The notes under the pieces were generated by a model. That model searched no databases, was not told the DNA's origin, and saw nothing but the letters and a program-made list of their open reading frames with translations. This document shows, one piece after another, positions 14,501-64,000 of a stretch of DNA of 64,000 nucleotides. The position numbers and the translations under genes were made by a program. How positions within the stretch are numbered: position 1 is the first letter of the stretch; each line of letters begins with the position of its first letter. Source of the stretch: Phoronis australis (Eukaryota > Animalia > Phoronida); the NCBI GenBank assembly GCA_002633005.1, contig NMRA01000750.1:62001-126000 (forward strand), read 5' to 3'.

Positions 14501-17500
14501 ACGTGCCAAGTTCAAAGAAGAGGGTTCGCCTGCAACATTTTCGCGTAACAGCTCGTTGAGTTCTCTCAGCATCATTAGCATGGAGTCCATGAGCTATGAT
14601 CCCAGTCCTACAGAACAGGCTCTCTTAGATCAGTGCATCAGTTCAGCCATGCCTAGAAAGATGATCACACCAAAACCAGCCAAGAGCCAGCTAAGAAAGT
14701 CTGCATCGTCAGAAAGAAACAGAAGTTCTCTCCTGCCAAAACCGCAGTCACCGCTGGCTGGCCAAGTGGTGGTGAAAACAGAGCCAAAAGATTCTCTTCA
14801 AAGCAGAAGCAGTTCAGCTGAAAGTGCGAGCCCAAAGCGATTATTGAACGGTGTCGGAAAGAAGAGCCCTAGTCAGCTAGCAAAAAAGGGACTAACAGTC
14901 AAAACGGAGCGGGTTTGCAACAGTCCATCCGCAACTTCCTGTGTTGTTGCACCCGCTCCAAGTGTTGCACCTGACAACCAGGCATGTCCTGGTGCTAATA
15001 GCGACTCGAGCCAGATGGCGATGTGGCGTCGAACACCGCACAAATCATTTGACGAGACCAAGCCAAAAAACGATGAGGGGATGGGCCGGTTCGGGTGGAG
15101 ACGGGCCTATTCCCAAGACAGTGACGCTTTTGTGAAGCAGCGTAAAGATTCCACCAACAACGCCAAGGTCCTGGAGAAGCTAGCAAGTCCGGAAGATAAA
15201 CTTGAGTGGAGGAAAACATACACAGTACCCAAAGATGAAGCTTTCTTATCCAAAAACGATTTGACAGATAGGCCCAGTTCGTGTGCAGCTGACAATCGTC
15301 AGTTACGTGATCTACCCCACAGTCCTGAAACTCGGGAGAAAGGAGTGGTGGAAACCGACCGAGAGAAACCTCCGAGTCCAGAGGAAGAAGGAACCAGTGT
15401 TGTGAACACCATCGAGGATGGCTCCCGCTCAGAAACATCTGAAATGTCCACTGATGCTGAAAGCTTGCTAACTGTTCATGAAATGGTACCCCGAATTGTG
15501 GACGATTTTGAGTTGATTGAGAGTGACAGTGAAGTGGGTGACATTATGCAGGAGACGATGCCAGTACTATCTGGCTTTACTAGCATGGAGACGTCAGTGG
15601 CATCATCTCTGAGCAGGTCCATGCACTCCATGACAAAATCTGGAGAGCTTCTTGAGCAGTCAGAGAAGGTAGATTGCATAGAACTAGATAACGGCCCAAA
15701 AAACCCTGTGAAACAACAAGAAGGCGGTGAAGAACTTGACCTGGACATGTCTCTGGAGGAAGTCCAGGCTTTGGAAGAGGCAGCAAACATGGTGGTCAGG
15801 TCAATAAAACGGGACATGTCCAACTGTACACTAGATGAGGACTTGTTTATTGACAATGAGACATTGTCTCTTGTGTCGACGGAGTACGCATCGGACTCGT
15901 GTTCTGAAGTGTCCCTGACTTTGTCAACGAGCTCCAAAGCTTCAGAGCACCAGAGTGAAGTTTCTTGTACCTCGAATTCTGCTCGACGCGGACCACGTAT
16001 CCTGAAACCTGGTGAAAAGACAACCTCAGAAGTTAGGAACCAGGAGGAAACTGCAAAAGGCATCAGAGGTAAAAGGAAAGCACTTTACTCCTCCCGACCA
16101 GCCAACAAACCTGTAGTCGGCAAACCCAAAGACACGCCTACAAAAGAGACACTGGCAAAGGCAAGTCCTAGAGTTGCGAAAGCTAGAGCACCTGCTCAGA
16201 AGACTGCTTCACCTTCACCCACGGCTGCCAGTAAGAAACCAGCTGTTAAGCCAGTGTCTGCCACTGCTGTCGTCAATCCACTGAAAACTCCACCCAAAGC
16301 TGCTGCCAAACCGGCAGTTAAGAAACAAACGGAAGTGAAGAGTGTTGAAAAGAAACAGCCGCCACCATTAGGGTCAAGGTCAAATACAGTCATTCGCAGA
16401 AGTCCAACGGAGAAACCAGTCGTGCAGCCAAAGCCTCCCACTAAACAGGGGACTTTTGTGAAGGATGCGCCAACCAGTGACAATGCTCCAACAATTGATC
16501 TTGATTTGAACGGAAATAGGGCATCCCAAAGTACTACCAAGGACCAATCCAAGGCAACAGGAAAGTTTAGTGCATCATGTAGTGCATCCAAGAGCTCAGT
16601 GGAGCAAAGGCAAGATGCTTCAAAAACATGGACAAAGGCTCTAAGTAGATACAGTTTTGTTGTGGACACTTCTTCTGAGGATAGTGCGAAGCTGGACCAA
16701 AGAGGGCAGCAGCAAAAGTCCGCCTCGCAGATTGGCAGCACGGGAGCAAGGCGCCCAGGCAGTGGATCCCCCAGATCCCTCTCTGCAGCTGGTTCCAAGC
16801 AGGGTTCTAATAGCTCTCTTAGCAAAGCAGGTAGCAAATCGAACCTGAGCAAGACTGCTAGCGGCAGTTCACTGAACAAATGTGCCAGTAAGACACCACT
16901 GTCGAAGGTGGGCAGTGCTGGTAACCTGAAGAAGACTGGAAGCAGAAGTAGTCTGAAGCAGTCCGACAGCAATGCAAGTTTGAAGAAAAGTGGTAGTCGC
17001 TCGTCGACACCAAGTGGGCGTGACACGCCTCCTGGGGAAGGACGGCGGTCTTCAGCAGAGGGTACGCCCACTAAGAAAACGTCAACAGCTGGACTCGTTG
17101 GCAAGAAGCAAGTCGGTAGTAAAATTGCTGGTTTGTGGAAGAAGGATGACAGCGGTTCAAATGCATCGATTAAAACTTCGCCTCAGGGGGCCAGCAAGAA
17201 AGGTCCTGGCTCGCCCAGTACACCGCGAAGGTCGTCCACATCCAGCACCGTGGGCAAAACACCAAGGAACAGTTCACCATCTACTCGACCGCCGCCTGTT
17301 CCACCTGTACGGAAGAGTTCTCTGTCATCAAATTCAAGCTCCAGTAGTGTCGGCGGATCTGGGAGGAGTAAATCTCCACCTGGCGCAGATAAAAATGGAC
17401 AAAACTCCAAGCCTGAGAGCCTATCCAGGGGAAGGACGTTTGACAAGATCTCGCGTCCAGCTACTCTCACCAAAACTAACTCGCCTAATAAAAGTACTGG

Positions 17501-18155
17501 AAACTCATGGAGGAAAGAGAAACCAAGTGCTTCTGTAAAGAATCAGACGAAAGCTCAGTCTGATGTGTGGATGAAACAGGACTCGTCCTCGGATTCGCTG
17601 TCAAAAACTGCCAATTCAACATCCGTTGCTAGCACAGGCTCTGAGTCGTCATTGAGCACCAAGTCATTGGAAGGTGCCAGTAACAAACCAATTGAGAAAG
17701 TTGACGTGAAAACTGCGGAAAGCCACTCTTCAACTGGTAAACCACATTTGGGCAAAACACCTCCTGTGGTTAAAACGAAACCCAAACCAAGTGCCATTCC
17801 TAACGGACAGGTATCTAATGAAAATAATTCATGCAATCCACCTAAAACTGTGCGGAGCCCACCCTTAAGTCCTACTCATCAATCACGGAAAGTCCAATCG
17901 ACAGATAATCGTAGTACATCTGAACCATTGTCGGCCATTGTACAGCCATTCAACTACAATCCCAACCAAGGCAAAACACCAGATGTTGCTTTGAAGAATG
18001 CTGTCAACGCTGGTACGCAGCTTGAGTCGCCTAAACCAATGACAAAAACAGAAATGCTGCTTGCCCGCCGTAAACAAGCTTCTAAGAAAACGGATGAACT
18101 ACCAGGCGATGATGAGGAAGCTAAAAAAGCTGGTTGCTTAGTAACCACTGTGTAG
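2506..18155 (+). CDS. APC: Adenomatous polyposis coli protein (APC), 5'-partial; 8 exons in window, about 3115 aa
   Basis: Phase-compatible GT-AG exons: 2506-2590 (least certain), 5789-5928, 6442-6559, 7031-7306, 7776-7877, 8512-12414, 12901-13106, 13638-18155. Translation has LGTK|VEMVYSLLSMLGTHDKDDMSRTLLAMSSSQDSC, armadillo repeats (LRNLSWRAD, LWNLSAHC, LTIVSNACGTLWNLSAR), 15-aa repeats (QPLNYSLKY), 20-aa repeats (EGTPxxFSxxxSLSxL), three SAMP-type repeats, a Ser/Lys-rich basic region and a C-terminal PDZ-binding CLVTTV. Confidence 0.97.
4760..4986 (+). mobile_element. hAT-like MITE (family 1, copy 1) with 6-bp TSD
   Basis: TIRs CAGGGCATGGAAT / ATTCCAAGCCCTG, flanked by GATTTT on both sides; homologous copies at 42492-42710 and 53504-53754. 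Confidence 0.75.
5031..5395 (+). mobile_element. 5'-truncated non-LTR retrotransposon 3' end (CCHC knuckle) with TSD
   Basis: Reading frame SPVCPECGTDVESPKHLVESCP ends at 5279; T12 tail; direct repeat CCATGTTTC at 5022-5030 and 5396-5404; related fragment at about 22075-22170 on the minus strand. Confidence 0.7.
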
Positions 18156-24030: not shown

Positions 24031-31174
<7,144 letters not shown>

Positions 31175-36414: not shown

Positions 36415-38410
36415 TTCATTTATTGTACATCGTAGTCTTTACCTACACATACACAAATACATAAATTTAAATGTTTATCCAGAGTAGTTACACAGAGAAC
36501 AGTTCTCGTAAAGCCATAGCCTTCTGAATAAACAGTCCAAGGCGCTGGATAATGTCATGATTTTTATGTTGGAATAACCTAACAAGAGAAGAGTTAACAT
36601 TTACAAGCTCTGGTAGAAGATTTTTCCCAAGGTCTCCAAAACAGGGCACCGACACATGAAATGAGGCTCATCTTCAATTTCACCCAGACTGCATATACCG
36701 CATATTGTATAACTTCCAGGAATACCCATATGTCTACCTTTCTCTATTATTAAGTGAGTGACCTGAAAATCGAAATTGCGCAAGTATTCTCGAATAAGCG
36801 CTCAAACAATTCACATAATTATTGCTCGCTAACAAGATCACGTTTAATAAGACTATAAAATTCATATTTATTTGAACTACCTATTTCCAGTTGCCATTCC
36901 TGTACGCTGCAATCTAGTAGCCTCTGCGTGAATACCAGATAATAAATTCAACACTATTACCTGGGCCAAATAACCACACTTCTCCATAACCGAACCTATA
37001 CAAAATTTCTTTCACACGGTGTGCCCAGTTATAATTACAGTTTTCACCAGAAGTTCCCTAAGTGTACTATGGTACTTCACTGGGTACCTATGGTTTCCCA
37101 TATCAAGTAATTTTGTCCAATAGATAATTGGTTTACACATATATTTTGTAATAAACAAAATTGTCCTCCACATTCACCGCGAGCCACAGCATTCGGCGTT
37201 TTAATGCTCAGTCTCATAACTTAGTTACAGAAATCATTATGAACTTTTTCAATAGATTCATACATTCATGTGACCCCTATTTCTGCACCATATGTTAACA
37301 TGGGCATAATCATGGAGTCAAAGAGTTTAAAATGCACTGCGTAGGAGGTACAGTTAAATTTTGACAGAGTGGCTTTAATAACGCTCATTGCTTTTCGAGC
37401 TTGGTTTGCAAGTACTCTACAGCACTATGTCCATTTAACTCTACAGGAGAATGGGACTCCTAGTACTGTCTTGTAGTTGGCCCACGATTTGGTATCTATT
37501 TTTTTGGCCAGAAAACCACCTTTCAGTATTTGAAAAAATGCCCCCTCGTTAAATACCACAACATTTGTTTTGTCCAAATTAACTTGCAAGTTCTAATTTC
37601 GACAAAACTTTTCGAGGACATTGAGCTTCATCTGTAGCCCAGCAACAGTATTCGACACCAGCACCAAGTCTTCAGCAAAAAACAGAGAGCCTATATCACA
37701 ACCCGGGGAGACACGTATGCCTCTGCCTACATTTTCTCTAATATCAGACACTAGTGCGGTAATAAACACCGAGAACAGCCAGCGACTTAAAACACACCCT
37801 AGCCGAATACTAACTGCACAGTTATAATAGGGCGTGGTCTGTGACTTTACCATAACACACGACTGTAAAAAGTCGTACATACTGCGCAAAATGCAAACCT
37901 TTGGTTAAAAGGGCAAAAAATAAACGGAAATATCTACACTATCAAATGCCTTGCCGAATCCGCATTATACTTTCCCTTTCCGTTTAGTGACATGTTTCTG
38001 GATGATACTCTGTAGGTTAAACATGTTATCGATTGTAGAATACCCAGAACGAAAGCTTGTCTACTCTTCCGGAATACATTTCGTATTATTCGACCATTCA
38101 ACTGTACAAGTATAAAGAATAGTTGTAAAATTTTTATTAATGCTATCTATAACGGAGATTCCTCTATAATGATTTGGATGAGACTTATCTCCCTTTTTGT
38201 AACATGGCACAATAATACTTTTTGACCAGTGGGATGGATAATGCCCGGTATTGAAACTTCTATTAAAAAGTTCGCGGAAAAGTTTTACTAGGGCCTCAGG
38301 AAAGCACTTATAAAATTCAGCCAGTACACCGTCATCTCTGGGAGATTTATTATTCTTTTGTTTCTTAATGACCCTTTCTATTTCATCTGCGCTAATACTA
38401 TGCTAATGCA
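36415..38410 (-). mobile_element. Decayed LINE ORF2 (RTE-X-like), RT plus C-terminal CCHC
   Basis: KSPRDDGVLAEFYK, IVPCYKKGDKSHPNHYRGISV, GYSTIDNMF, RLGCVLS..LFSVFI, LFFAEDLVL, VNLDKTNVVVF, LFDSMIMPMLTYGAEIG, C..C..GEIEDEPHFMCRCP; AATAAA at the 3' end. Confidence 0.85.
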
Positions 38411-39290: not shown

Positions 39291-40646
39291 AACTGTCACT
39301 GGTAGGCGCCACAGTAGTCCAATGTCTTCGAAAATCATTGACGGTACTGTTCACAGTAGAAACATGAACGTCAATTTTCTAAATCGTCCTTAGGGTAGTT
39401 TGGTCGAAAGAGGCCGGGGCGGACGCCAAAAGCACATTACTAGAAAACAGAGCTGTCGACATTCCATCCTAACCTCGCATTTTACGTTTGCTTTTGCGGT
39501 GTATGTCCTTAGACAGATGCCTTCCATAGCAACCATCTGAAGTTATGCACAGAGTCTCTGCACGCGAACTTGGGCATCTATTGTGTCATTTGGTGAAGGC
39601 ACCCTTCGCCTACGATAGAAGTAGACACGAGCCCCATTCATTAATTGTTGGGACAACTCTGCTGCCGATTCAAAGGCAAGAAGACTGCACTGGCATAACA
39701 TTTTCTAGGGGTCGTCGTGGGTTGCATCAACCTCTGGAATGTTCGTTTCTTAGCGTATGGATGCTGCCAGTTTTCCCTTTCCAAAGAAATAAAACATCGT
39801 GTTGCAACCTAGCTGACGCTGTATGAATTTTGCGGAGAAGTTGGGTGCACTTTTTGGGGTCTAATCTCTAGACCTTTTTATTAATATCAAAAATATTACC
39901 TTTCCACCTCCGCATTTGAATCTTGGCGTCAACTGTCATCTAAGACATGTTCAACAAACCAAAAGCAGGGTGAAGTCAGTGCTGTCCTACCTACGAGGAT
40001 TCTGATGGTGTGGGCATCTTCATCCACCGCTTTCAACACGCGCCTATAAATTCTACCGCCTATAGTTGCCTCAGCACGGGTAACTACGAAGTGGTTTTTC
40101 TAACCGGCGTGACCTCGAATGGAAGGCGATAGCTGCATAGGTGAAAAAAGGTAATGGTTGAAAAGAGCCTTGTTTTTGGAATTGTTTAGTTGTTTCTCGG
40201 TAACGAACGGGCCTCTGGGGTTAACAGGATTTTCTTAGCCTTTTCTTGTTCTTGAACGATCCTTTGTACAGGGAGCTTTGACGGAGGCCATATCTTTCAA
40301 ACGGACAAATCCCTTGTAGTTCCAGAGATAGTCCAGACGACAGATGCTGGCCAGGACCAATATACAGCACGTCTGAAGCAAAACGATTTGTGACCGAGAC
40401 ACTGAGAGATTCGGCCGAAATGGTTTTGTCTACATTTCTCAGACAGCTCAGTGTATTCATCGATCGCGGCCCAGTGTAGGGATTGCGGGACAGTATCATC
40501 TCATGCTGAAAGATATCGGCTATGTCAATGTTACCTTGCTGCGCGCCATGCGACAAACAGGCCAACTGAACAGCGTCTCAGAGCCACAGGTGACCTTCGC
40601 CTTGATAGGGACAGGTCTACTCAGCAACTGCACTATTTTGACTTTT

Positions 40647-40951
40647 NNNNNNNNNNNNNNNNNNNNNNNNNNNNNNNNNNNNNNNNNNNNNNNNNNNNNN
40701 NNNNNNNNNNNNNNNNNNNNNNNNNNNNNNNNNNNNNNNNNNNNNNNNNNNNNNNNNNNNNNNNNNNNNNNNNNNNNNNNNNNNNNNNNNNNNNNNNNNN
40801 NNNNNNNNNNNNNNNNNNNNNNNNNNNNNNNNNNNNNNNNNNNNNNNNNNNNNNNNNNNNNNNNNNNNNNNNNNNNNNNNNNNNNNNNNNNNNNNNNNNN
40901 NNNNNNNNNNNNNNNNNNNNNNNNNNNNNNNNNNNNNNNNNNNNNNNNNNN
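40647..40951. other. Assembly gap (N run)
   Basis: 305 Ns. Confidence 1.
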
Positions 40952-42491
40952 CTTTGTTATTGTAACCTCGCTTTCAATTCACTTTGTTCCGGCCACATTG
41001 TCGTACGTCAAAAACTCATTCAATTTTCCCACCCTCTTCCTCCCAGTTTTCGTCATTCTCTCGTACATCCACGTGGCCGGCGCTTTTTATTGCCCATCTT
41101 ACCAGAGATTACCTATTATACTTATTTACCTGTATTCATTTTATTGTAATTGTACTAGTCATAATAAATGACCTTATATCGCTTACATCAGTCTCCTTTC
41201 ATCTCTGGTAACGAGCTTGCGACGCACGTATCATTTATCTATTATCCGGGACATATGTCGATCATAAACAACACGTCTGAAGCAAAACGATTTGTGACCG
41301 AGACACTGAGAGATTCGGCCGAAATGGTTTTGTCTACATTTCTCAGACAGTTCAGTGTATTCATCGATCGCGGCCCAGTGTAGGGATTGCGGGACAGTAT
41401 CATCTCATGCTGAAAGATATCGGCTATGTCAATGTTACCTTGCTGCGCGCCATGCGACAAACAGGCCAACTGAACAGCGTCTCAGAGCCACAGGTGACCT
41501 TCGCCTTGATAGGGACAGGTCTACTCAGCAACTGCACTATTTTGACTTTTCCTTATTGCCTGGTAACGTTTAATGCGCGCGAAACAAAAATCTGACTGTC
41601 TGCTCCCAATGACCAGTTCGGTCGTTTCGAACAGTCACGATGTCTAAAACTTGATCATTGCTGACGTTATGGACTAGATATGGCAGACGGTCAATGAGGG
41701 TATGTCAGTGCTTCTGTAACTCCCGAGCCGCGATCTTTCTCCATTCGTTCTTGTCTAGTCTCCTACTTCCCTCCCCTTTCTCCTTGTGCTTAGTCTTTTC
41801 CCTGTCTACTCAGAACTTGGCATTTTGGCTCTTCTCCACCTTCATTCTACACGTGTTCCATGGCGGTGGACATACCCTCTGATACAATTCACCCACACAG
41901 GCCACTTGCTCAGTTCTTGTTAAAATACCTTTCATGCTCCCAGAACCTTTTTATCCATTTGATATATCTGTCCGTTCCAATTCGAATTAATCAGCTTGTA
42001 CTGCAATCTTGTCTCTCGGGTGTCAACAACAAGCATGCGCAACTTTGAGTGGAACTTATATCTCAATAACATGGTGTTTCTGTCAAACCTTTTGGAGCTT
42101 GAGATGACGTTATTGTACCAAACCGCTAAGAATTGTTTATTTATCAGTTTTCAAATGGATTTACGCAGTAAATTGCCGAGATCAGTTACGGCAAAAGGCA
42201 TGAAGAAAGCTGGCGCACTGAAACGGATTACAGTTTATGACTTTCGACATTGTCCGGGTAAACTGCTCAACCACTGTACACATAATTGTGCTGACCTGCT
42301 GCGAAGAAATACGTTTTCTTCATGATACAGGGCCGTTGTAGCACGAAGGTAAACATGAGAGAAAACAGTGTTGGTTTAAAAAGGCGATCCACCATGCCTC
42401 CTGGTCAGGTAAACCATCAACTCTTCATAAATCTTGGCCCCATTAGAGTACAAGTTCAGTAGCAACACGGTTCTGGCAAGACTGCCTATCC

Positions 42492-45684: not shown

Positions 45685-47533
45685 TCACTGTTTTAAAGTG
45701 TCTTCTTCAACCGAGTTTATTGCTTGATGTTTTAGTTCTACAATGGACTCGTCTAGTTCTTGTCTCATTTTTTCTAAATATTTGAACTGTTCCTGTAACT
45801 TGTCCGGGGCCTGTTTTAATTTCTGGTGTAAGCTGATGAACTCCATGGCCTCTGTATAACAAATGTCAACACCACTCAGCTCACTTGGCAGCACACTTAA
45901 ATTTTCATCTTCAACTGAATCATCATACGAATCTGTCATTACGTCAGACGTTTTGTTAACAGCTCCTAAAATAATGAACACATGAGTACGGTTACAACAG
46001 AGTTGAGTGTGATTTGAAGCCTGCTCTACAAACCGAATATTGTTGAAATAGACATTCTAGGTACAAGATCTACAGGCTAACATAGCCCAGAACTGTTCCC
46101 AGAAACGTAGACTGCATAAGAATTAATCTGTTTTAACAGTTGATAACCATTCTTGTTCAGTTTAACACACACTGTAGTTAAATTGAGAAAGCCAAGTTCA
46201 GGGGCTGAACACAGGCGGCATTTGATTTAAAAATGAAAAAAATCATCCATGGGTAAGCGTTAGACAGTGACCACGGCCTCTAGCTGGCCAGTAGAGATGG
46301 TGAAGCTCATACAGAAGCTTCAAAGGCCGGGTCTAGAAGCTTTTCGGGGAATTATGCCTCACACTGATTAAAACATCAAAGTTATGTCGTAATAAGTACC
46401 TTTTGCACACAGAAGGACACCATAGGAGGCCGTCAATATCTTTAATTCCTTCGAACTCGAACAAATACTCCTGTTATAAAACTTTTTCTTCGAGTAGTCC
46501 TCCGTTCAGTTCCCAAAATCGAAAACTGGCCATTTTTAACATTGCGTGACGGATGGTATGACATCATATACCCTGGCGTGTGCTAGGTAAAAATGGCCAG
46601 TTTCCGAACTTGGAAACTGAATCAAGGACTGCTCACAGAAAAAGTTTGGAAAAGGAAGTACTTGTTTGCCAAAAAGCCTCTGCCGTATGAAGCTCCTATA
46701 CTAGGAGATTCATAGTCTCTGCTACTACTAGCAACTTAAGCTAGAGACGGTGTAGAGAATGACCAGCCAGCAGAGATGATGTAGCTCCTATAGGCGTTTC
46801 ATACGCTGGAAATTTTTCAGCGAATTATGCCTCGCACTGACCAAAACATCAAATTCACGTTGTTATAAATACCTTTTGCTCATAGATGGGCACCTTAGGA
46901 GGTCATTTATGTATTCAATTCCTTCAAACTCGGAACAAATACTCCTGTTATCAAACTTTTTCTTAGAGCAGTCCCTTGTTCAGTTCCCAAAATCTGTAAC
47001 ACACCATTTTTAACACTGTGCGCAGCAGGTGGCATATGCCGCATATGACGAATGCATCTTCTACCGTGCGCAGTGTGAAAATGGTGAGATATCGATGTTG
47101 GGAACTGAACGAGGGACTGCTCCTCCTAGACAAAGCTTGATAACGTCTAACAAGAGTATTTGTTCAAGTTGGAATTAAATACATCGACGACTTCCTGAGG
47201 TGTCAATCTATGCGCAAAAGGTATTTATAACAACGTAACTTTCATGTTTTAGTCAGTGCGAGGCATAATTCGCCGAAAAGCTTCCGGCCTATGAAGCTCC
47301 TAGTCCTAGTATAGGAGTCGAGCTCCATCTTCTCTACTCAGTCTCAGCAGAGATGGTCATTGTAAAAAGTTGAAAAAAACTCTGCTTGAGCGTTTACCAA
47401 CTCCATTCCCTTTCAAAAGAAACACCACATCGTCGCTCGATGTTTTTTTGATATCCTCGTGTATCTTGTCGACGGTAGGCGGCTTTGGTCGCGGTGTGAA
47501 TGACTGCAACTTTTTTCTCTTGCTCATCTTCAT
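45685..47533 (-). CDS. C19orf25: UPF0449 family protein (C19orf25 homolog), 2 exons, about 138 aa
   Basis: Exon 1 47533-47398 (MKMSKRKKLQSFTPRPKPPTVDKIHEDIKKTSSDDVVF) matches the UPF0449 motif P.RP.PPTV..I.ED......D.VF. Phase-1 join to exon 2 45965-45685, which has a coiled-coil C-terminus (YTEAMEFISLHQKLKQAPDKLQEQFKYLEKMRQEL). Confidence 0.85.
46278..47360. mobile_element. Two adjacent foldback elements (family 2) filling the C19orf25 intron
   Basis: 46278-46746 (CTCTAGCT/AGCTAGAG ends) and 46759-47360 (ATGACCA/TGGTCAT ends), each made of long inverted arms such as GTTCAGTTCCCAA / TTGGGAACTGAAC. Confidence 0.75.
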
Positions 47534-50800: not shown

Positions 50801-53800
50801 ATAAATTTTGTTTTACCTTTGAATTCATAAAGTGTGGCTTTACGAGATTTTCCAGAGCACTCTTCTTTCTCTTGTTACTCGCCTCCAGTTAATTGATGAT
50901 TGACAGGTAAGCATGGTGTCCTGAATCAAGCTAAAGTAACCAAGTTACATAACCGCTTCTCTGTTCCGCTGTTGTGTTTTAGCCAGTTTATATCCAGCGT
51001 TCGCCTACTCAAAAATTTAAATTGGTCATGTTTCCATCACTTTGAAAATTTAGACAGTGAACAGCCCCTTCATGTCATAGTGAACGCACATAAATGATAC
51101 TTTTTTGTTCAAAATAAAAAATTAAATAAATTATGTCGCGTCCTATTTTTAAAGTCACAGGCAATATCAAACAAATCCGTTTGCTAAAACAGGTCATGGA
51201 GAACACTGAAATGGCATGCAGAATCTCTTGATTCCGTTTGCTTTTATCGTTTGTTAGAATCATATATAAGCATGTTAAAGGAAGGAATTATGGGTTGATG
51301 ACTGAACCTTCAAGATCATCTTGGGGCAAGTCTCACCAGCAGTTACAGCTTTGTGACCCATATTTTCCCTCATCTGCTTTTCAACTTTTGACATGAACCA
51401 GTTTAAAAACTATGCGACAATCTTGACCATGTGCTATTTGCTTTTCTAGCTCCTGCAAGCGTGACCTTTTCAGTCAAAACATTAATGCAGATGAAGAATG
51501 ACTCCTGCATTTTGATTGGTGTAGAAATTATAAACTCTTCAATATTTGCCTTTCATTGGCTAAAATATGAGTCATGTTTATTGCTGAAAAAATCGCTTTG
51601 CTTTGGTGCCCATGAGTGGATTAGAGGAATTTGCATGTCGACATTTCACCATGACAACTGGAATGAAAGCGGCTGCTAGGCATCCCGGTAACTGTAAACT
51701 AATCTGCCAAGGTTCACACAGGGTCTGACCCTGTTCCTGGTTTCGCTGCTACTTGTGAGCATGCAGTTTTCCTTTTGCATATATTTTAAAATCTGTGGCC
51801 AGGCTATTGGTCTGAGTTGGAATGTAAAGGATCTAAGGATGTTTGGCTGTAAACCATAATGTTGTAAATGCAGGAGCCAGTCCATGAATGTTATAGCAAT
51901 TCTTTGTTAATTCAGATAGTGAACTGCAGATAAGGTCTGCGCGTGGGTTTGGTAGTACTGTACTCATCGGCTCTTTGTGTTAATTGCCACATAGATCGTA
52001 AACATGCAAGGCATGGTTTCTTCTGTAACAGATCTTTCGATTTATTTATTTTCTTCAGCTCCAAACAATAAAATTGTGATTTAACTTTCAATTTGATGGT
52101 AAAGCCTGATTAGAAGGTTACTAAACCCGGATTTTGACTGTTAACAGATATTAACGCAGACACAATCATAAAAATCTTTGAAACAAAGTAATGGGGTCTG
52201 TTCCAAGAAACTGACTAAAGTTAATTTTTGACTTAAGTCTAAGATTTGTCTTAACTTCGAAACTTTAACACTTCCACATTTTGTAAGTTAGTCAAAATTA
52301 AGACAAAACTTAGGTCAAACACTTAAGTCAAACTTAAGATCTCATTCTTGAATTGGTTTTGAGGCAAATTTAAGTAAACTTTTATTTTAAAAATTGTCTT
52401 AGCTAAGTCAGTTTTGTTGGAACGGACCCCATGGTCTGTAGACTTTTCCCAATCTTCAATTTTGGGTAAAATCACCAAAGCTTGCTTCAGTATTGGTTTA
52501 TGATAAAATTGGCTGAAGATCTTCTTATCAAAGTCCCATCATTGTGTTCATGTTTCTCAGCAATGATAATTCTGTTTAGTCGTAAGCCAGTAACAAATCT
52601 TGGCTTTTAAGTTGTTTGTAAATGGCTGCATTGCAGTGTACTAAATTTATTTAGTAAGTTTGCAAGTTTTGTTACACCGAACACCTACTGCTTTATTGGA
52701 AGTTTCTCAAGTTTTGACGTCACAGTTAGATCATGCATTGCACAAGTGTGTCTCGTTTTGTCTATACCTCACAAATGTTTTTTTTTTTAACTTCAGTAAC
52801 CAATCCAATCGATGTGGTGAAGATTCGCATGCAGCTTGACAATGAGCTGGCCTCACGCAGCGACAGTAAGAATGTGTTCAAGAACCGCTACTACAAGGGA
52901 TTCATCAAAGGTGGCAGTGTGATAGTCAGGGATGAGGGAATCCGTGGACTTTACAAAGGGTGAGTTACTTGACATTAATCAGTACAAAGGGTTTTAGATA
53001 TTGCCAGCTGGTGTAAAGTCCCAGTGTCTCTTGAATACTTCTAAAATGACAAAATTGTCATTGATTCCAAAGCTTTCATTGTGTGTTGTCACCTCAGACA
53101 GGAAAGTATTTTTTATGTTTGTCAAACAAGTAATGGCATCGTTAAAAGCTGGGGTTCAATTTCATAATGGCAGGCAGAAAAAGGTTTTCTAAATCTACGA
53201 ATCGTATTAAACATCAACTACTTTGTTTAAACTAGTGTTATTTTGGTTCATGTTGTATTTTCTTTGTTTACCAATGCCTCATATTCCTTACATTTAGACT
53301 ACTCCCATCTCTTATGAGAGAAGGCAGCTATAGTACAATTCGTCTTGGAGCCTATGAGCCATTAAAGAGACTGTTTGGTGCTGAAGATGTGAGGCACACA
53401 CCACTGTGGAAAAAGATCTGCTCTGGCGCCATCTCGGGTGATTATCCAATTGTTTTCTATAGTCAGTTGTCAAAACTAGAGTTTGACTGTTCATAGGTTA
53501 ATACAGGGCTTGGAATTTTCCTCTTTTAAGAGGATTTCCTCTTTTTTTGTTTCAATTTCGTCTTATTGATTCCAGTTTCTTTTTTTTTGGTCTGTTTATC
53601 ATTATTTTGACTTGACATGCAAAAACGTATATTTCAATTAAATTTTACAACACAAAAATTCTTTCTATCACGTAAGCCCATTTATTTGTGGAACGGTACC
53701 GTACATCACCTCGAAAATTTTCCTGTTTTTTGTCATTGGTCATTCCCAGCCCTGTTAATGGTGGTTCAATGCGTGCTTGTCTTTATTGAACATATGCACA

Positions 53801-56800
53801 TTTTTAAGTTTTTCGACATGAATGCTATACAGAATGAGTATGCTCACTATTTTTTCGGATCAGTATCTTGTGGGTCCAGCGTGTAGTAATGACCATTTCA
53901 ACCTATAGGTGCCATAGGTAGTGCCATAGCCACGCCCACTGACCTAATTAAAGTCAGGATGCAGGCCTGTCGACACAAACTTGGGGAGGTACCGCGATAC
54001 CGGAGCACATTTGCAGCATTTGGAGAGGTGGCACGGACTGAGGGCATTCGTGGTCTGTGGACTGGGGTTGGGCCCACTGTGAAGCGGGCGACTATATTGA
54101 CAGCAACGCAGGTGAATTATGATTATACATAAACCAATTTCTTCAAGTGGTCTTTGGGTGTTTTTGTTTTATATGAAAATAAATCTAGATCTAGTAGCCT
54201 CAGCATTAAAAACTGTGTCTCACTGCTGTTGATTGATATAAGACTTTGATGAGGAAATGTTACCTACTACAGAAATACTCTGTTATTGGGCATTTTTGTA
54301 CATACTCATTGAATATGTCAGCAGAGTTCAAATTTCAATAGCGTTTGCAATGATACACCAAATGTACGTACAAAATTATTTAAGTCATGCCTATCTGTGT
54401 GTTGTCGTACAAGTCACATGATTCCAGTCCATAAGTACTCATTAGTACATGACAACTTATTCTCACAAAGTGACCATGATTTCTCTGTGACAAGCATAAC
54501 CAGGACTCATTGTCATGACTACTGATTGCAAGTGGAATTTTCACTGAGAGTCGCTTGAATGACAAGTTGTTTCTAGTCATGACAGGGAAATGGAACTTAC
54601 CTGGATATTTTTGGTGTGAACTAATTTAAGGTACATATTTTTCCACCAAACTTGATCTCTGATGTCACGATGATTTTTAAAATAGTTAGCCACAGCTTGT
54701 ATTGAACCCATGTACCTTATCTTTCCCTGGCAGATCCCCGTTTATGACCATGCCAAGCACACCCTGCTCAACTATCAGGTACTTTCCGAGGGCATCCCTC
54801 TTCACATCACCAGCTCAATGATAGCGGGTTTCATGACCGCAGTGACGACATCCCCAGTGGATGTTATCAAAACCAGAATCATGAACCAGAAAAAATCAGG
54901 TTAGTGGGTTACATGTACTAGGCAGCTTGAAGGCATAGCACTAGGGCTTCCTACTGTAAATTTGTGTCGATAACACACAGTACTTTTTAAGTACGGGTTA
55001 AAAAATACTTTAGTACTGTATTAAAAGTACTAATAAGTACCATATTAGAAGCACATTGAGCCAAAAGCATTTCGTATATTTTACTAGGTTTTTCCTTTTT
55101 GCTCGTTTTACTGTTGTGCTAATATAAGTCAAGTTACAACTAAAATGAAAAACATTGTTAACATCTATGCCTAACGTAAGGATCCGTGAGAGCGCAGGTT
55201 TTCGCTTTTCACTGTACTAACAACTGGTCAAACTATCAATCCAAATGCGATAAAAAATGTTCAAAATGATATACAAAGTAAACGTCTCAGTGATTACTAT
55301 CAGGGCTAAGCGTGAGTGAACACTTGGAAAAGTACAGTATGAGTAGAAAATTGGCCCCACTCGTATGGACGCCTAGATGACGTCCGGTTCCTTTGGTCAT
55401 CACTTAGGAGCCCAAATCTGGAAATATGAGTGCAGAATGTGCCATCATTTGTATTTCCGAATGGGTATTTTCGCATGTGTCAGGCACTGACTATACAATT
55501 GCGGACGGAACTGAAGGACAATATATATAGATTATTACATGGCGAAGTCGTTATCCCCCGTATTCTAGAACCCGAGTGGATTTTGGAGAATTATCGCCCG
55601 AGGGGCATTAGCCTCGAGGATGATAATTCTCCAAAATCCCTTGAGGGCTCTAGTGAAGGGGGATAACGACTGAGAACATGCAATAGTCTATTTATACCAC
55701 ATACTGAACGAAAAACATTGCAATGAATCGATCTACCTTTCTCGACTCGCCTCTCTAACTACTTTCTGTCAGAGGCCCAGGGTCAGAGTGTTTGACCTTT
55801 TAAGAAAAGCCGAGCTATTTTTGTCAAATAATGCTTTTACTCAAAACCAATTGAAAATTTAAACAAAACAGAAATAAAGTGAATCTATAAATCAAGGTTT
55901 AGCAACTATTATTATAGCTTACTACACATTTTATCATGCTAAGCTTCAACTGAGAATATATCGTCTGATAAAGTAGGTTACCACTGGTAACTGAGTGTAA
56001 TGCTCAAGTCAAAGGATCCCGATGACACGATACCCGCATTCAAATTGTAAATCGGTGATTTACAAGTGAGAGAACATGAGAGAAAAATTTTACTGATTAC
56101 AGAATTAAAATATTGTTTTTATGGAAAGTATGCGTCTTAATATTTTTCATAACGTATAAATGTCGGTACAATGCCCATTGTTGAACATGCGATTGTTGTG
56201 CTTGCTCATTTAAGTATTCTATTTTCACGTTCGATGACGTCAGCCACTTAGTGGTGCAATGGTAAAGTCGACGACTGAAAACCCTTGCGGACCAAGTTCG
56301 AAACTGGCCTCGATTCCCGCCAAAATTTCATCTCACTTGTGAGATAACTAAATGGGTTATTACATGGTTGTATTGGTCATTCGAGGCTAATATTTTGGTA
56401 TAAGTAGTCTTATATGGAACAAGGGAGAGCAATGTTGCTGGAAGCCGAAGGTCAACTTTGCTCTCCTGCGAGATTGGTCTATATTTTTTGTGAATCCACT
56501 GTCTTATGCTCCTTTCTTCTGATTTCTTCATCTCTTTTTAGATTGCCATGCTTTTACCTGCTGCTTTGTGCCGTCGTCTGCTCGCTTTGACTACAGCGTG
56601 TGATTGGGCACTTCACTGATAGTGACCTCTGTAACATCAGTATCACTAGTCTTGTTAGGAACTTACATTTCATTGATTGTCGTGTACACTTCTTTGTCAT
56701 CTGCCTCACTTTGCAGGGCCACCCCTCTACAGAAGCTCCTGGCATTGCCTAACTGAGACAGTGAAGGTGGAAGGCCCTCTTGGTCTCTATAAAGGCTTTA

Positions 56801-56892
56801 TTCCAAACTGGATGAGGATAGGACCACACACAATTATCACTTTCTTCATATTCGAACAGTTGAGGAAAGCTGTTGGAATGAGACCTGTTTAA
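47898..56892 (+). CDS. Mitochondrial carrier (SLC25) of the UCP/ucpB-like subfamily, 6 exons, 314 aa
   Basis: Exons 47898-47994, 52797-52959, 53298-53437, 53909-54111, 54734-54899, 56717-56892. Three Px[DE]xx[KR]x[KR] signatures (PIDVVKIR, PTDLIKVR, PVDVIKTR), EG.RGL[YW].G motifs, and the arginine triad (LMREGSYSTIR, VKRATI, WMRIGP) typical of UCP/dicarboxylate-type carriers. The N-gap in intron 1 could hide sequence, but exons 1 and 2 already join in frame. Confidence 0.92.
48156..49057. other. Assembly gap (N run)
   Basis: 902 Ns. Confidence 1.
49058..49302 (+). mobile_element. 3' end of HINE/DINE-like element: microsatellite plus terminal hairpin
   Basis: (AAGAAT)n at about 49210-49245, then a perfect 10-bp stem TACTCTGCGC-ttacac-GCGCAGAGTA (49273-49298); the body of the element lies in the N-gap. 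Confidence 0.55.
49959..50468. mobile_element. hAT-like MITE with 5-bp TSD
   Basis: CAGTGCTC / GAGCACTG termini, TACAT on both sides, subterminal TTTGGCGACCTGA repeated near both ends. Confidence 0.7.
50616..50778. mobile_element. Small GC-rich MITE
   Basis: AGTGGTGGAT...ATCCGCCCCT inverted ends, G/C runs, TGATTA on both flanks. Confidence 0.6.
52193..52430. mobile_element. PIF/Harbinger-like MITE family 3
   Basis: GGGGTCTGTTCCAA / TTGGAACGGACCCC TIRs; interior rich in CTTAAG motifs. Confidence 0.75.
53504..53754 (+). mobile_element. hAT-like MITE family 1, copy 3
   Basis: CAGGGCTTGGAAT ... ATTCCCAGCCCTG; flanks TTAATA and TTAATG. Confidence 0.75.
55523..55696. repeat. Long imperfect palindrome (about 170 bp), probably the end of a non-autonomous element
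   Basis: TAGA.TATT.CATG..GTCGTTATCCCCC..GGATTTTGGAGAATTATC..CGAGG / CCTCG..GATAATTCTCCAAAATCC..GGGGGATAACGAC..CATG.AATA.TCTA. Confidence 0.85.
56243..56322 (+). pseudogene. tRNA-derived sequence (A box, GAA anticodon-like loop, B box); not an intact tRNA
   Basis: TGGTGCAATGG (A box), CTGAAAA loop, CCAAGTTCGAAACTGG (T arm/B box); acceptor and anticodon stems do not pair. Confidence 0.45.
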
Positions 56893-59615: not shown

Positions 59616-61162
59616 CTGAGTTAAACATTATCTATGTCTCAAGACAGTGCCATCTTTCGGCAGTTCATTCTAAGGTGCTGAATTATTACATTATTGCCTT
59701 GCCTCAAAATAAAATGGAAGAACACTGTAATCACTTAGGTAACCTTCACGTTTAGGCTTTGTAAATGCAGGTTGGAGGTCGGACCGTCTGTTCATATCTG
59801 CTGACTCCTGATTGCATAGAGAATACGCGAGCCCAACTAGTGGATCACAATTTTTACCAAACTGCAGCTTTCTTAGAAATTCAGGTATTAAGGTCCGTCC
59901 TCTTTGTTTGTGATAACTTCATGACTGGAAACTTTTAATGGTGTTGCTCATTATGGGAGAGATTCTTATTCTCTGTCAGTATTAGTGACAGAAATACATC
60001 ATGTTAAGCATTGTAACCATTTGTTATTAACAGTGGTAACGCAGTTGAAGTTTTCTTACTTATAATATACTGAATCGACTTACATAAAATAACAGAAGAC
60101 ACCTATGAAGTTGACTTATTTGCACTTACACAACAGACATGCCCACACAAAGTGCTGTCACTTTGGTTATCGATTGCATTTTGATTTTCAGCCGACTGAG
60201 ATAAATATCCGTGCCATGTGCGAAACATGAAAGCCAAAACTGCAAAAACTTTTGATGCAGTTTCAATTAGTAGAGTGTGCTTTTTACAGCGATACTCTGC
60301 CATAGTTGTGAAAAAGAACAACATGGCAGAAAACAAAAAACTCCACGAAGGGTACTTAATAAATTATTATTTTGTATCACAATGACACTACATTATTAAA
60401 AGGATACTAAAGCCGGTTTCGACGACTTCAATCAAGGCCTTGTTCTGCCACCTGCCAATGCACCACTGGTGCCACACATGGGTGATAAAAGCAGAATTCA
60501 TAACATTCATACTCTCCCAAGTCACAAATTGGGCATTATGGTTCTTGGTGCGTGGTCTTCCCTACAGTTGTACGAGTCGCCTAAAGTGTATGCCACGCTT
60601 GCCCATTGATCATAAATAGTAAGGGGTTTATAAATTTTGCTCCAATCTTTGAGAGGGTTACAGAGCAATATTTTGCTCAGAGAACTGGATGGGAAAGTTC
60701 TTTTCAATATCTGTTAACAGGACAAAAACGGATTTGGTATCCCTTTAACGGACAATGGAATATAAGCATGTAAGGTTGATGTATACAGGTTATCCTCTAT
60801 GTTATGCTGCACCTTATTCTACATCTTTCGGCTGAAACATTTTTCATGAAGTTTCTGATTTAAAATTTTGTACAGACACGACACTGAAAAATTGGTCACA
60901 TTAAGTTTAATTTCAGTATTGCAATGAGCTCAGATCAGCCAATTTTGACTGGTTTTGAATTAAACCACTCACTGGGTATAATAGAAATTACTGCTGGACT
61001 TGGGAAGCTTTTTCCTAAAGCCGATTCACTTTTAACGACAAAAATGTGACACGAAAAACACCAGAGCTGACAAATGGTAGCCATGTCACGCAGCGATTTG
61101 AAAACTGCTCTTGAACAATTTGAACTATTGAAAGTCTCTGAATAACCAGGTGAGTCTTCATA

Positions 61163-61228
61163 TTATGTCCGGACCTGGAATCTTCCAGCTTTTGTGACGT
61201 ACTTCACACCCTTGAAAGGTTTGTATTT
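61163..61228 (-). CDS. AP3M1: AP3M constitutive terminal coding exon
   Basis: gctttcag|AAATACAAACCTTTC...CGGACATAA; 21 aa plus stop, phase 0. Confidence 0.93.
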   Translation of the reverse strand, partial: KYKPFKGVKYVTKAGRFQVRT

Positions 61229-63471
61229 CTGAAAGCAAAATTGCACAAATCACCTTTGTAATATCTACTGTATATTGAGAAATGAATTCAATTGCTTTGA
61301 TTAGATCTCAAAATGACTGATGCAAAGCACAACTCTGAACTGGAATAACATTTGATTAACATGTAATTAGAACTCACACATGACCATAAGACCACGTGTA
61401 ATTTCCTTTTCTAACGTGTGCTGGCTTAGAAAATAAATTGAATTTTGTCAAAATTTATTTGGCTATGTTAAAGTCATGGTGAAAGTTCAGAAGCAAACCA
61501 AGCATTAAATTACACATGAATTGCAAAAACGAGCGGTAGTTAAATGAAATAATTTACTTAATGTAACATTAGTTTCGCGCACACGTGACTACCCCACGGC
61601 AAAAGTTTGAAAATTGCAAGTCATTTGCAGTAACAAATATTTAACTAATTCCAAATCGTAAGCCTTACCTCAACAAATAGGAAATGATTTTAGTAATTAT
61701 TTACTTTGAAGAGCAATGTAAGACCATTTTGCCGAAAACTGTAATTTCCCTTCACAAGAACACATGTTTTGTTGCCATGGAAACGTTGTCATACCTCGCC
61801 ATACATATCCACTCTATTCACTCTCAGGCCAGACACCGCCACACTATTAATATGATATTTAACCTAAAAGCAAACAAAACCAAACACATGGGGTTGGTGG
61901 AAACTCCTTTCCTGCAACACAGGGTTGTACAAAACAAAAACATATAGGGGTAACAAAAAACAGCAAAGCAGAGGGACATTAACATAAACAAAGGATCAGT
62001 GGGAGCCACTTTCCAGCATCCCCAGACATCCTCCTCAAGCAGCGTCAAGCATATTCAGACCAAAAGCTTACAAAACTTATAGCCGAAACCTCCTGAGCTG
62101 AAGGTGCTTCTAGATACCAATGCAACTTTGTAAAGGTCAAACTGGGAACAATTATAATGCGTATCTTCTCCAATGCTCAGCTTTTTAGTTGAAGTCATTC
62201 AATTTAATTCAAATGTATTGCCACTACTACACCAGTATTTGCACAAAATCTTGCCATTAATTGCAACTTGTTCATACATTTTGGAAAAAGCCACGCAAAG
62301 GAGCATTAGTACCTAGCTTGGCACAACATCTCAGCGGAAGACAAAAAACTACAGATGCCCAGATACTGCTGCAGAACATAAAGATGAGCTGCCACAGCAA
62401 TGCTACCTCAGCAAACATATCCATACGATTGACCTTCAGTCCTGACATGGCCGATACCAGCCCGTTGATGACAAAATTAACCTGCAATAGTACACTAAGC
62501 TGAATGAAGCTACAGCACGTGTATTGGATAACAAGCAATTTCCCAGGGGGGGGGGCACTCTCAACCAGTTGCGTAAAGAGATATGCAACAGGTTTTTCTC
62601 GGGCAGTTTCATTTTTCAGCCATACAACACAAGGGTATGTTTAAGGCACAAAATAAAACCAGTTTCCAGCAAAACGGACTTCCAGTAGCACAACGCCCAT
62701 TCAAAACAAGGTCAGATACCCCCGGTCGGCGAATGAGATGCTGCGTCAGACAACGGGGGTGATGAGTAAGGCATGCAGGTCACAGACTAAAAACCAAAAT
62801 AAAGTTAACAGCGAGCAGGCATGTAGAGATGCTTCTTCCGTCTTATTTAGTTGAAACTCTAATGTGGACAAACTTGACACACTGGGTAATTTTGCTCCAA
62901 AACTAGCGTTTGCACGAAATTTGTGTCATGTTATTCTAAAAATGAAAAGCACAAACTCAAAAACAGAGGATCTGTAGAGAACAGGAAATAAATCACAAGT
63001 TATAGTGAACAGTCAATGGCTGTGTGTTCATCACATATTAATTAATTAGCTTTCATGAGCACCGCTTCAGTAATATGAGGAGTAACTTGGTCCAACCAGT
63101 TTCACACAATGGTAAGCGTTCCTTGTTTTTATTTAGTATACGAAAAATGAATGGAGAAATTATAAAGGTGATTTAGCACTTCTTGCTCAGAATGGAGTAC
63201 ATTGGTGTTATCCTTGGCTTAATAAACAGCTTCATTCCTTACGCCGCCATTTTTGACTTGACAATGTTCACTCGATATAGCTTCAGCAACTCGTTCAACT
63301 AAACAAAACAAAAAAGCAGTCTCTGCATGGCAGCAAAGCCCTGAAATCACAATGGCAGACAAATTAAGTACAGGGCATTAAAATGTCATCATGCGGGAGT
63401 ACCTCTCCATACATATCGAGACGGTTGATTCGGTTCCCCGAGATGGCCACAGTAGTAATGTGGAAATACAG
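61163..63471 (-). CDS. AP3M1: AP-3 complex subunit mu, 3' end (terminal exon plus alternative penultimate exons); rest of gene beyond window
   Basis: Terminal exon 61228-61163 encodes KYKPFKGVKYVTKAGRFQVRT*, nearly identical to the mu3A C-terminus. It is preceded by three homologous exons ending in NRxDM(Y/F)xE. Confidence 0.93.
61795..61863 (-). CDS. AP3M1: AP3M alternative penultimate exon C (VKYHINSVAVSGLRVNRVDMYGE)
   Basis: 69 nt, cttttag acceptor, GAG|gtatga donor, phase 0-0, open frame. Confidence 0.85.
62407..62481 (-). CDS. AP3M1: AP3M alternative penultimate exon B (VNFVINGLVSAMSGLKVNRMDMFAE)
   Basis: 75 nt, ttgcag acceptor, GAG|gtagca donor, phase 0-0, two-codon insertion relative to exons A and C. 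Confidence 0.8.
63403..63471 (-). CDS. AP3M1: AP3M alternative penultimate exon A (LYFHITTVAISGNRINRLDMYGE)
   Basis: 69 nt, gttccag acceptor, GAG|gtactc donor, phase 0-0, open frame. Confidence 0.85.
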
Positions 63472-64000
63472 CTGGAACGGAATTACGTCATGAACAATTA
63501 ACACACAGTTTGACGATGTTAGTCATTCTTCTTAAAGGCAATTAAAGCACAGGACACTACCGCATACATCCAAGTTAATGCACAGGGTGTTTAAACTGAA
63601 AAAAAGACACATTTGGAATTCAGCCGAACATTCAATTTAAAGCTGCATTTCACCACGTTTAGCAGGTTGAAATCGAATTACGCATTTTACTCTCCAAAAA
63701 TTGATCTCTCGTAATTCCTTACCGCAACAGGATTCCATTTCTATAACCCACAAGAACATCAAAAACCATCAGCAACTAAAGAAAATTCTTAAGAATTTAT
63801 AGGCATTAGACAACCCTAAGATTAAGGATTTGAAAATGACGCATTTACGCATTGCATGCGAATTGAGTTACAAGCTCATTCAACAATAATTCAAGATTGG
63901 ATGAGTGTGGTAATGTTTTTAAACCCCAAAGTGGTTGGGTTAAGAATTCAACATTGACAGCTAACAGGGAGAAATGCAGTGGCAACAGTCGCCAGTCAAC

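Follow-up and report, generated by a model that had tools for sequence, protein, structure and literature searches.

Tandem-duplicated mutually exclusive exons are a well-known class of alternatively spliced exons. In the accessible text of the human, Drosophila and C. elegans catalogues (PMC9741552, PMC5740500), such exons are homologous, of equal phase and similar length, are chosen in a sample-dependent manner and differ mostly by conservative substitutions. For invertebrate NALCN, the accessible part of PMC9741552 describes an exon choice by which residues of a functional recognition site are exchanged, with a measured switch in ion selectivity. A different route to diversity is seen in the mu subunit of the AP-3 adaptor, which vertebrates encode in two genes with ubiquitous and tissue-restricted use, respectively (mu3A and mu3B, i.e., AP3M1 and AP3M2; available sections of PMC10235903). 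As far as the accessible portions of the literature go, the cargo site of mu3A resembles that of mu2 and lies in subdomain A (PMC3912200, PMC10235903), V401 and L404 of AP-2 mu2 line the Phi pocket (PMC5694535, PMC13577001), and the assembly of the AP-3 coat depends centrally on cargo binding by mu3 (PMC11185636, PMC13178560).

Here we describe an AP3M gene, located in a 64-kb window (i.e., the whole stretch of DNA that was analysed), whose cassette belongs to this class of exons. We consider it probable that three old tandem-duplicated exons are each spliced to a shared last exon in a sample-dependent manner, likely one per messenger, and so yield three forms of mu3, distinguished by a segment that is predicted to form part of the YxxPhi pocket.

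Three homologous exons precede the last exon of AP3M

The shared terminal coding exon (61163..61228, minus strand) encodes residues 398-418 and the stop codon, covers positions 239-259 of PF00928 and is followed on the same strand by a 3' UTR (60400..61162; end approximate) with a stranded RNA depth of 14-49 that drops near 60400. Upstream of it, also on the minus strand, are three versions of one protein segment: exon A (63403..63471; 23 codons, equivalent to AP3M1 375-397), exon B (62407..62481; 25 codons, including a two-residue insertion) and exon C (61795..61863; 23 codons). The initial annotation had proposed these three exons with the same coordinates and peptides, and both were reproduced here, as was its description of their borders: all three (69, 75 and 69 nt, respectively) are flanked by AG upstream and GT downstream, in phase 0-0 and free of stops. 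The donor borders read GAG/GTACTC in A, GAG/GTAGCA in B and GAG/GTATGA in C, and the introns measure 921 nt (A-B), 543 nt (B-C) and 566 nt (C to the terminal exon).

At the DNA level, no direct-repeat family in the region ranks above that formed by A, B and C (49 nt; 65-73% to C). A profile built from the three exons matched human and rodent AP3M1 at 374-397 with 38 bits (E 1e-8), the only PDB chains matched by exon C alone were those of AP-3 mu-1 (376-397), and the terminal exon aligned to AP3M1 398-418. Significant scores were restricted to AP-3 mu chains, which places the gene in AP3M and the exons in its C-terminal mu-homology domain. These alignments argue that the resemblance between A, B and C reflects homology, not chance; being adjacent, of similar length and of equal phase, with canonical splice sites, they qualify as tandem-duplicated exons. 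When only the three exons served as queries, a word-index search of proteins retained none of 78 candidates, and an ESM Atlas search gave unnamed matches only, all below 0.8.

Several other features were found in the window. On the plus strand there are an APC gene (6934-18152; two very large exons that encode Arm, 15-aa, 20-aa and SAMP repeats), a MNAT1/MAT1 gene (25774-31171, end approximate; RING and the start of the MAT1 domain) and a ucpB-like mitochondrial carrier gene (52793-56889), of which five exons were found and which lies tail to tail with AP3M; its nearest relative is from Lingula (77% identity, path 0.49; placement without support). The minus strand carries an open reading frame with a UPF0449 match above the Pfam cut-off (45688-46056) and degraded, LINE-like reverse-transcriptase fragments (37596-38402; weak RVT_1 match). 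A near-identical block flanking an N gap at 40377-41592 is either a tandem duplicate or an assembly artefact, and short interspersed repeats at 60520-60680 (inside the 3' UTR) and 63888-63962 show reads on both strands and many loose ends.

Each of the three exons is joined to the terminal exon in RNA

RNA data came from four runs under one species label: X1 consists of contigs (RNA by guess), and X2-X4 of raw RNA-seq reads. X2-X4 belong to one study and X1 to a second. Reads were placed on 60300-64000, with ~18-19% of each raw run (X2-X4) sampled, and a splice joint was listed when at least 3 reads from 2 starts supported it within one run. Five joints were listed, two of which fall in repeats. 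The remaining three, all CT..AC, enter acceptor 61228 from A, B and C. Specifically, the joint from C had a contig depth of 141 in X1 and 26, 15 and 9 reads in X2, X3 and X4; that from A had a contig depth of 54.7 in X1 and 2, 1 and 17 reads in the same three runs; and that from B was seen in X3 only, i.e., in one of four runs, by 6 reads from 6 starts. All three proposed donors (63403, 62407 and 61795) are thus in use, and the proposal that this gene makes three mu3 isoforms by exon choice gains support, with usage varying by run.

Overall usage is highest for C, while A predominates in X4 (17 reads vs 9 for C) and makes up ~28% of the summed contig depth in X1. The A:B:C ratio differed between runs whether reads (chi-square 44.7, p 5e-9) or distinct starts (25.4, p 4e-5) were counted, with small expected counts in both cases, and the ratio of A to C differed between X2 and X4 (Fisher p 9e-6 for reads, 0.013 for starts). 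Given that the alleles in X4 are nearer to the window (195 of 782 reads at least 99% identical), these ratios could reflect genotype and not tissue.

On the upstream side, the X1 contig at the acceptor of C (61864) runs on for 29 nt into an AP3M exon outside the window, and as these 29 nt translate to the residues that precede the segment in AP3M proteins (P0019), the upstream exon joins C directly. Over A and over C, depth in X1 equals contig depth x 70/124 (30.9 and 79.6, respectively), which corresponds to the exon and one shared base in each case; because both contigs end one base past the acceptor, like two arms of a bubble, A is probably joined to the same upstream exon. The upstream junction is therefore observed for C and indirect for A, and none was observed for B, which would presumably be spliced to the same upstream exon as C.

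We also looked for A-B and B-C junctions, which the initial annotation had named as a check on exclusivity. Whereas 76 raw junction reads in X2-X4 lead into the terminal exon, no A-B, A-C or B-C joint was listed. This absence holds at 3 or more reads per run and is bounded only by depth, such that rarer co-inclusion is compatible with it.

Trans factors are favoured over RNA pairing as the basis of exon choice

All combinations in which A, B and C are included together remain in frame and contain no stop. Since every combination stays open, nonsense-mediated decay does not fit as the cause of exclusivity. Steric clash does not fit either, because the introns between the copies are too long (921 and 543 nt) and the AG-free zones short (the nearest upstream AG lies 15 nt from the acceptor of B and 42 nt from that of C), with no sign of distant branch points as judged by sequence. 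Both mechanisms had already been discounted when the exons were first annotated, and the in-frame combinations and intron lengths bear this out.

Another explanation is that exclusivity is mainly enforced by docking-site/selector RNA pairings (as in Dscam, Mhc and 14-3-3zeta). Two candidate stems would each loop out B and C: S2, between 62660..62681 and 61720..61741 (62681-62660 with 61741-61720; -29.6), whose 3' arm lies 54 nt downstream of the C donor, and S3, between 63155..63188 and 61233..61266 (63188-63155 with 61266-61233; -25.3), whose 3' arm covers the pyrimidine tract of the terminal exon at its acceptor (all arms on the minus strand). In addition, 63334-63313 can pair with the B donor or with 62855-62820, and downstream docking sites are known in docking-site/selector clusters (accessible text of PMC6071210). 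Four stems at -25 arose in 15 of 450 shuffles and two at -29 in 4 of 450, with thresholds picked after seeing the data. However, at -20 the number of stems is ordinary (15 observed vs a mean of 14.6 over 867 shuffles), of 36 real tiles taken from the window itself, 9 and 5 equalled the respective stem counts, and the strongest stems use different arms and have no common docking arm. The long-range stems are not clearly above background, and pairing as the main cause of exclusivity is to us the leading alternative, possible but doubtful.

We favour regulation by trans factors acting on competing sites. In this proposal cell- or condition-specific factors would set the choice among three modest splice sites, with the proximal exon C as the default and with intronic pairings possibly assisting the choice of A by looping out B and C. 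By simple counts, the pyrimidine tract of C is richer (15 of 20 positions vs 13 and 12) and its donor closer to the expected pattern (6 of 9 vs 5 and 5).

The exons differ at positions that are nearly invariant in homologues

To place the differences between A, B and C, we compared them with 186 distinct homologous peptides, a set in which the proteins are biased to high scorers and the search pattern admits only hydrophobic residues at positions 389 and 392. Among these peptides position 387 is L, I or V in all, position 389 is V in 183 and position 392 is L in 179. Exon A departs from this conserved segment by N387 and I389, exon B by M392 and its two-residue insertion, and exon C by V392. 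Neither N387, M392 nor the insertion of B occurs among the 186 peptides, and I389 occurs once; V392 is present in 7 single-segment homologues and is thus apparently tolerated.

The segment aligns without gaps to the mu1 motif SG-x-x-V-x-x-L. By this motif, positions 389 and 392 of mu3 likely correspond to the Phi-pocket residues V401 and L404 of mu2. An AlphaFold model of chiton AP3M has pLDDT below 50 from residue 380 onwards, which makes the segment unusable there, and the accessible text of PMC4018625 contains no mention of V392 or L395.

If the correspondence holds, altered cargo preference among the mu3 isoforms is plausible. We suggest tentatively, and at somewhat less than even probability, that the changes at 389 and 392 would reshape the Phi pocket and hence shift the ranking of lysosomal cargo. 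The broader reading, that exon choice lets a single AP-3 mu gene form three different YxxPhi cargo pockets and that tissues thereby switch the proteins sent to lysosomes or lysosome-related organelles, we consider unlikely but worth stating: if true, the cargo specificity of a coat adaptor would be reprogrammed by splicing at residues that are nearly invariant elsewhere in animals. Few parts of mu3 are as conserved as the swapped segment, which probably helps to form the tyrosine-signal pocket; with three natural variants expressed against the same genetic background, the animal offers a ready test of pocket against cargo preference.

The cassette appears to be lineage-restricted

We assembled 318 AP3M proteins from the best 120 of 952 matches to an AP3M profile, 30 opened clusters and 75 of 77 representatives. 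They cover named molluscs, annelids, a brachiopod, a nemertean, echinoderms, hemichordates, tunicates, arthropods and vertebrates, with no close relative of the host, a slowly evolving bilaterian of marine type. The segment is carried by 302 of the 318. None of these 302 (the best 120 of 952 profile matches included) has two copies of it or a version resembling A, B or C, the closest being identical at 16-17 of 23 positions. Likewise, the 30 opened clusters held no substitution isoform at this exon and the 77 matches of the representative search no A-, B- or C-like peptide. Two matches of that search were dropped: the top-ranking P0214, an unrelated repeat protein that matched in six stretches, and P0274, which matched by chance. 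Re-scored on the same 44 positions, isoform A would rank 3rd, C 20th and B 141st of 199; given these ranks, absence from the listed proteins is fair evidence for A and C and weak evidence for B.

A scan with a terminal-exon pattern gave 115 metagenome loci, many of them redundant. In 56 an intron precedes the terminal exon, with one upstream copy of the segment in 31 and none in 25 (mostly with short flanks); 11 also show a weak match to the preceding exon, and a second copy was found in none of the 56. Five animal loci (L003, L019, L021, L054 and L077) have a strongly divergent exon (V392, C395) in one copy each, with no intron at its start. Both phase-0 boundaries flank a single exon in several animal loci, such as L022, L037, L039, L051 and L055, which suggests that the duplicated unit was a pre-existing exon. 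With no second copy in 302 proteins or 56 loci, the cassette appears, on present sequence sampling, to be restricted to a lineage.

The three copies carry signs of purifying selection

Amino-acid identity is 14 of 23 residues between A and C, 10 of 23 between A and B and 13 of 23 between B and C, with 9 residues invariant across all three, and pairwise nucleotide identity is 43, 40 and 46 of 69. Between pairs, raw pS is 0.69-0.78 against a pN of 0.23-0.33, based on ~15 synonymous sites per pair and with the two extra codons of B set aside in the alignment. The view that the DNA is highly diverged and the copies are old duplicates under selection, put forward in the initial annotation, is borne out in that pN is well below pS and the 9 residues are kept; i.e., A, B and C would be old copies under purifying selection, as estimated from few sites. 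Furthermore, among the 40 variants listed (there were 216 others), 32 fall in the 3' UTR and none in A, B, C or the terminal exon, which is a hint of constraint and suggestive only.

These values also bear on the idea that C is the working exon, while A and B are ageing spares, maintained by leaky splicing under drift and relaxed selection and with no distinct function. It draws on the fact that each copy is identical to the vertebrate type at only 13-14 of 23 positions, farther from the consensus than five orthologues from other phyla (17-20 of 23), on the absence of the polar N387 of A and the insertion of B from the 186 homologous peptides, and on the rarity of B in RNA. However, frame, splice sites and the core residues are intact in all three copies even though synonymous sites are near saturation, A dominates in X4 and contributes over a quarter of the summed depth in X1, and the pattern of variants points, if weakly, the same way; we therefore think this improbable.

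About equally improbable is that a fourth, consensus-like exon beyond base 64000 encodes a housekeeping isoform to which A-C are specialised extras. The near-consensus Q381 (152 of 186 peptides) is absent from A, B and C, and the upstream exon lies outside the window. Nevertheless, the listed junctions (28, 22 and 26 reads in X2-X4) cover most of the depth beside the terminal exon (36, 19 and 32 in the bin next to it), and the loose ends listed (there were 155 others) include none at 61229. Within the 64-kb window the three-exon profile detects no fourth copy (next best score 2.4 bits). A further copy considered at 63960-63880 (motif match at 63925) scored ~0 bits, lies inside a repeat with reads on both strands and was rejected.

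Finally, X4 shows sense coverage of 9-13x at 63524-63895 (minus strand), in the intron upstream of A, about as high as over exon A itself and compared with 0.7-6x in other introns; this may reflect retention, slow splicing or an unannotated feature, and part of the A signal in X4 may thus be incompletely spliced RNA. That the A RNA is mostly such a processing intermediate or retained-intron product, leaving one or two coding forms in effect, is nonetheless very unlikely, as the X1 contig of A stops one base past the A acceptor and the intron cover in X1 seems to be a 27-nt repeat match only. Three coding isoforms, probably with one exon per messenger, remain our preferred reading.

Discussion

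Some limits apply to the significance of this cassette: this kind of splicing is well known, the animal is a non-model species, and any functional effect is a prediction. No description of mutually exclusive exons in AP3M appeared in the titles and abstract openings that made up the literature searched. AP3M1 and AP3M2 are mentioned neither in the main text and one supplement of PMC9741552 nor in ten supplements of PMC5740500.

Alternative splicing in the same intron region also occurs in gastropod AP3M (Aplysia, Gigantopelta, Physella and Bradybaena), but there it adds a microexon-like insert of 4-6 residues after the segment and does not substitute homologous exons. In P0127, P0147, P0044 and P0112 the insert sits exactly between the segment exon and the terminal exon, which suggests a conserved microexon. 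Among cephalopods, AP3M proteins P0021, P0022 and P0023 are named isoform X12, X7 and X8, and their variation could include the segment region.

The vertebrate paralogues offered the initial annotation an analogy, which holds in part. As in vertebrates, there is more than one form of mu3, with different patterns of use, although these forms arise by exon choice in one gene and not from two genes. By contrast, a single one of the 23 segment positions distinguishes AP3M1 from the vertebrate-type P0279, P0280 and P0282, which we take to be mu3B. Because the segment is almost constant between the vertebrate paralogues, the parallel is a loose one.

In NALCN, as presented in the accessible part of its source (PMC9741552), exon choice likewise exchanges residues at a recognition site; the change of ion selectivity was measured there, whereas a change of cargo preference in AP3M is predicted. 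With the exclusive exons of the human, Drosophila and C. elegans catalogues the AP3M exons share homology, phase, length, sample-dependent use and a preponderance of conservative substitutions, and the cassette stands apart from them in having three copies, in a trafficking adaptor and in a non-model invertebrate.
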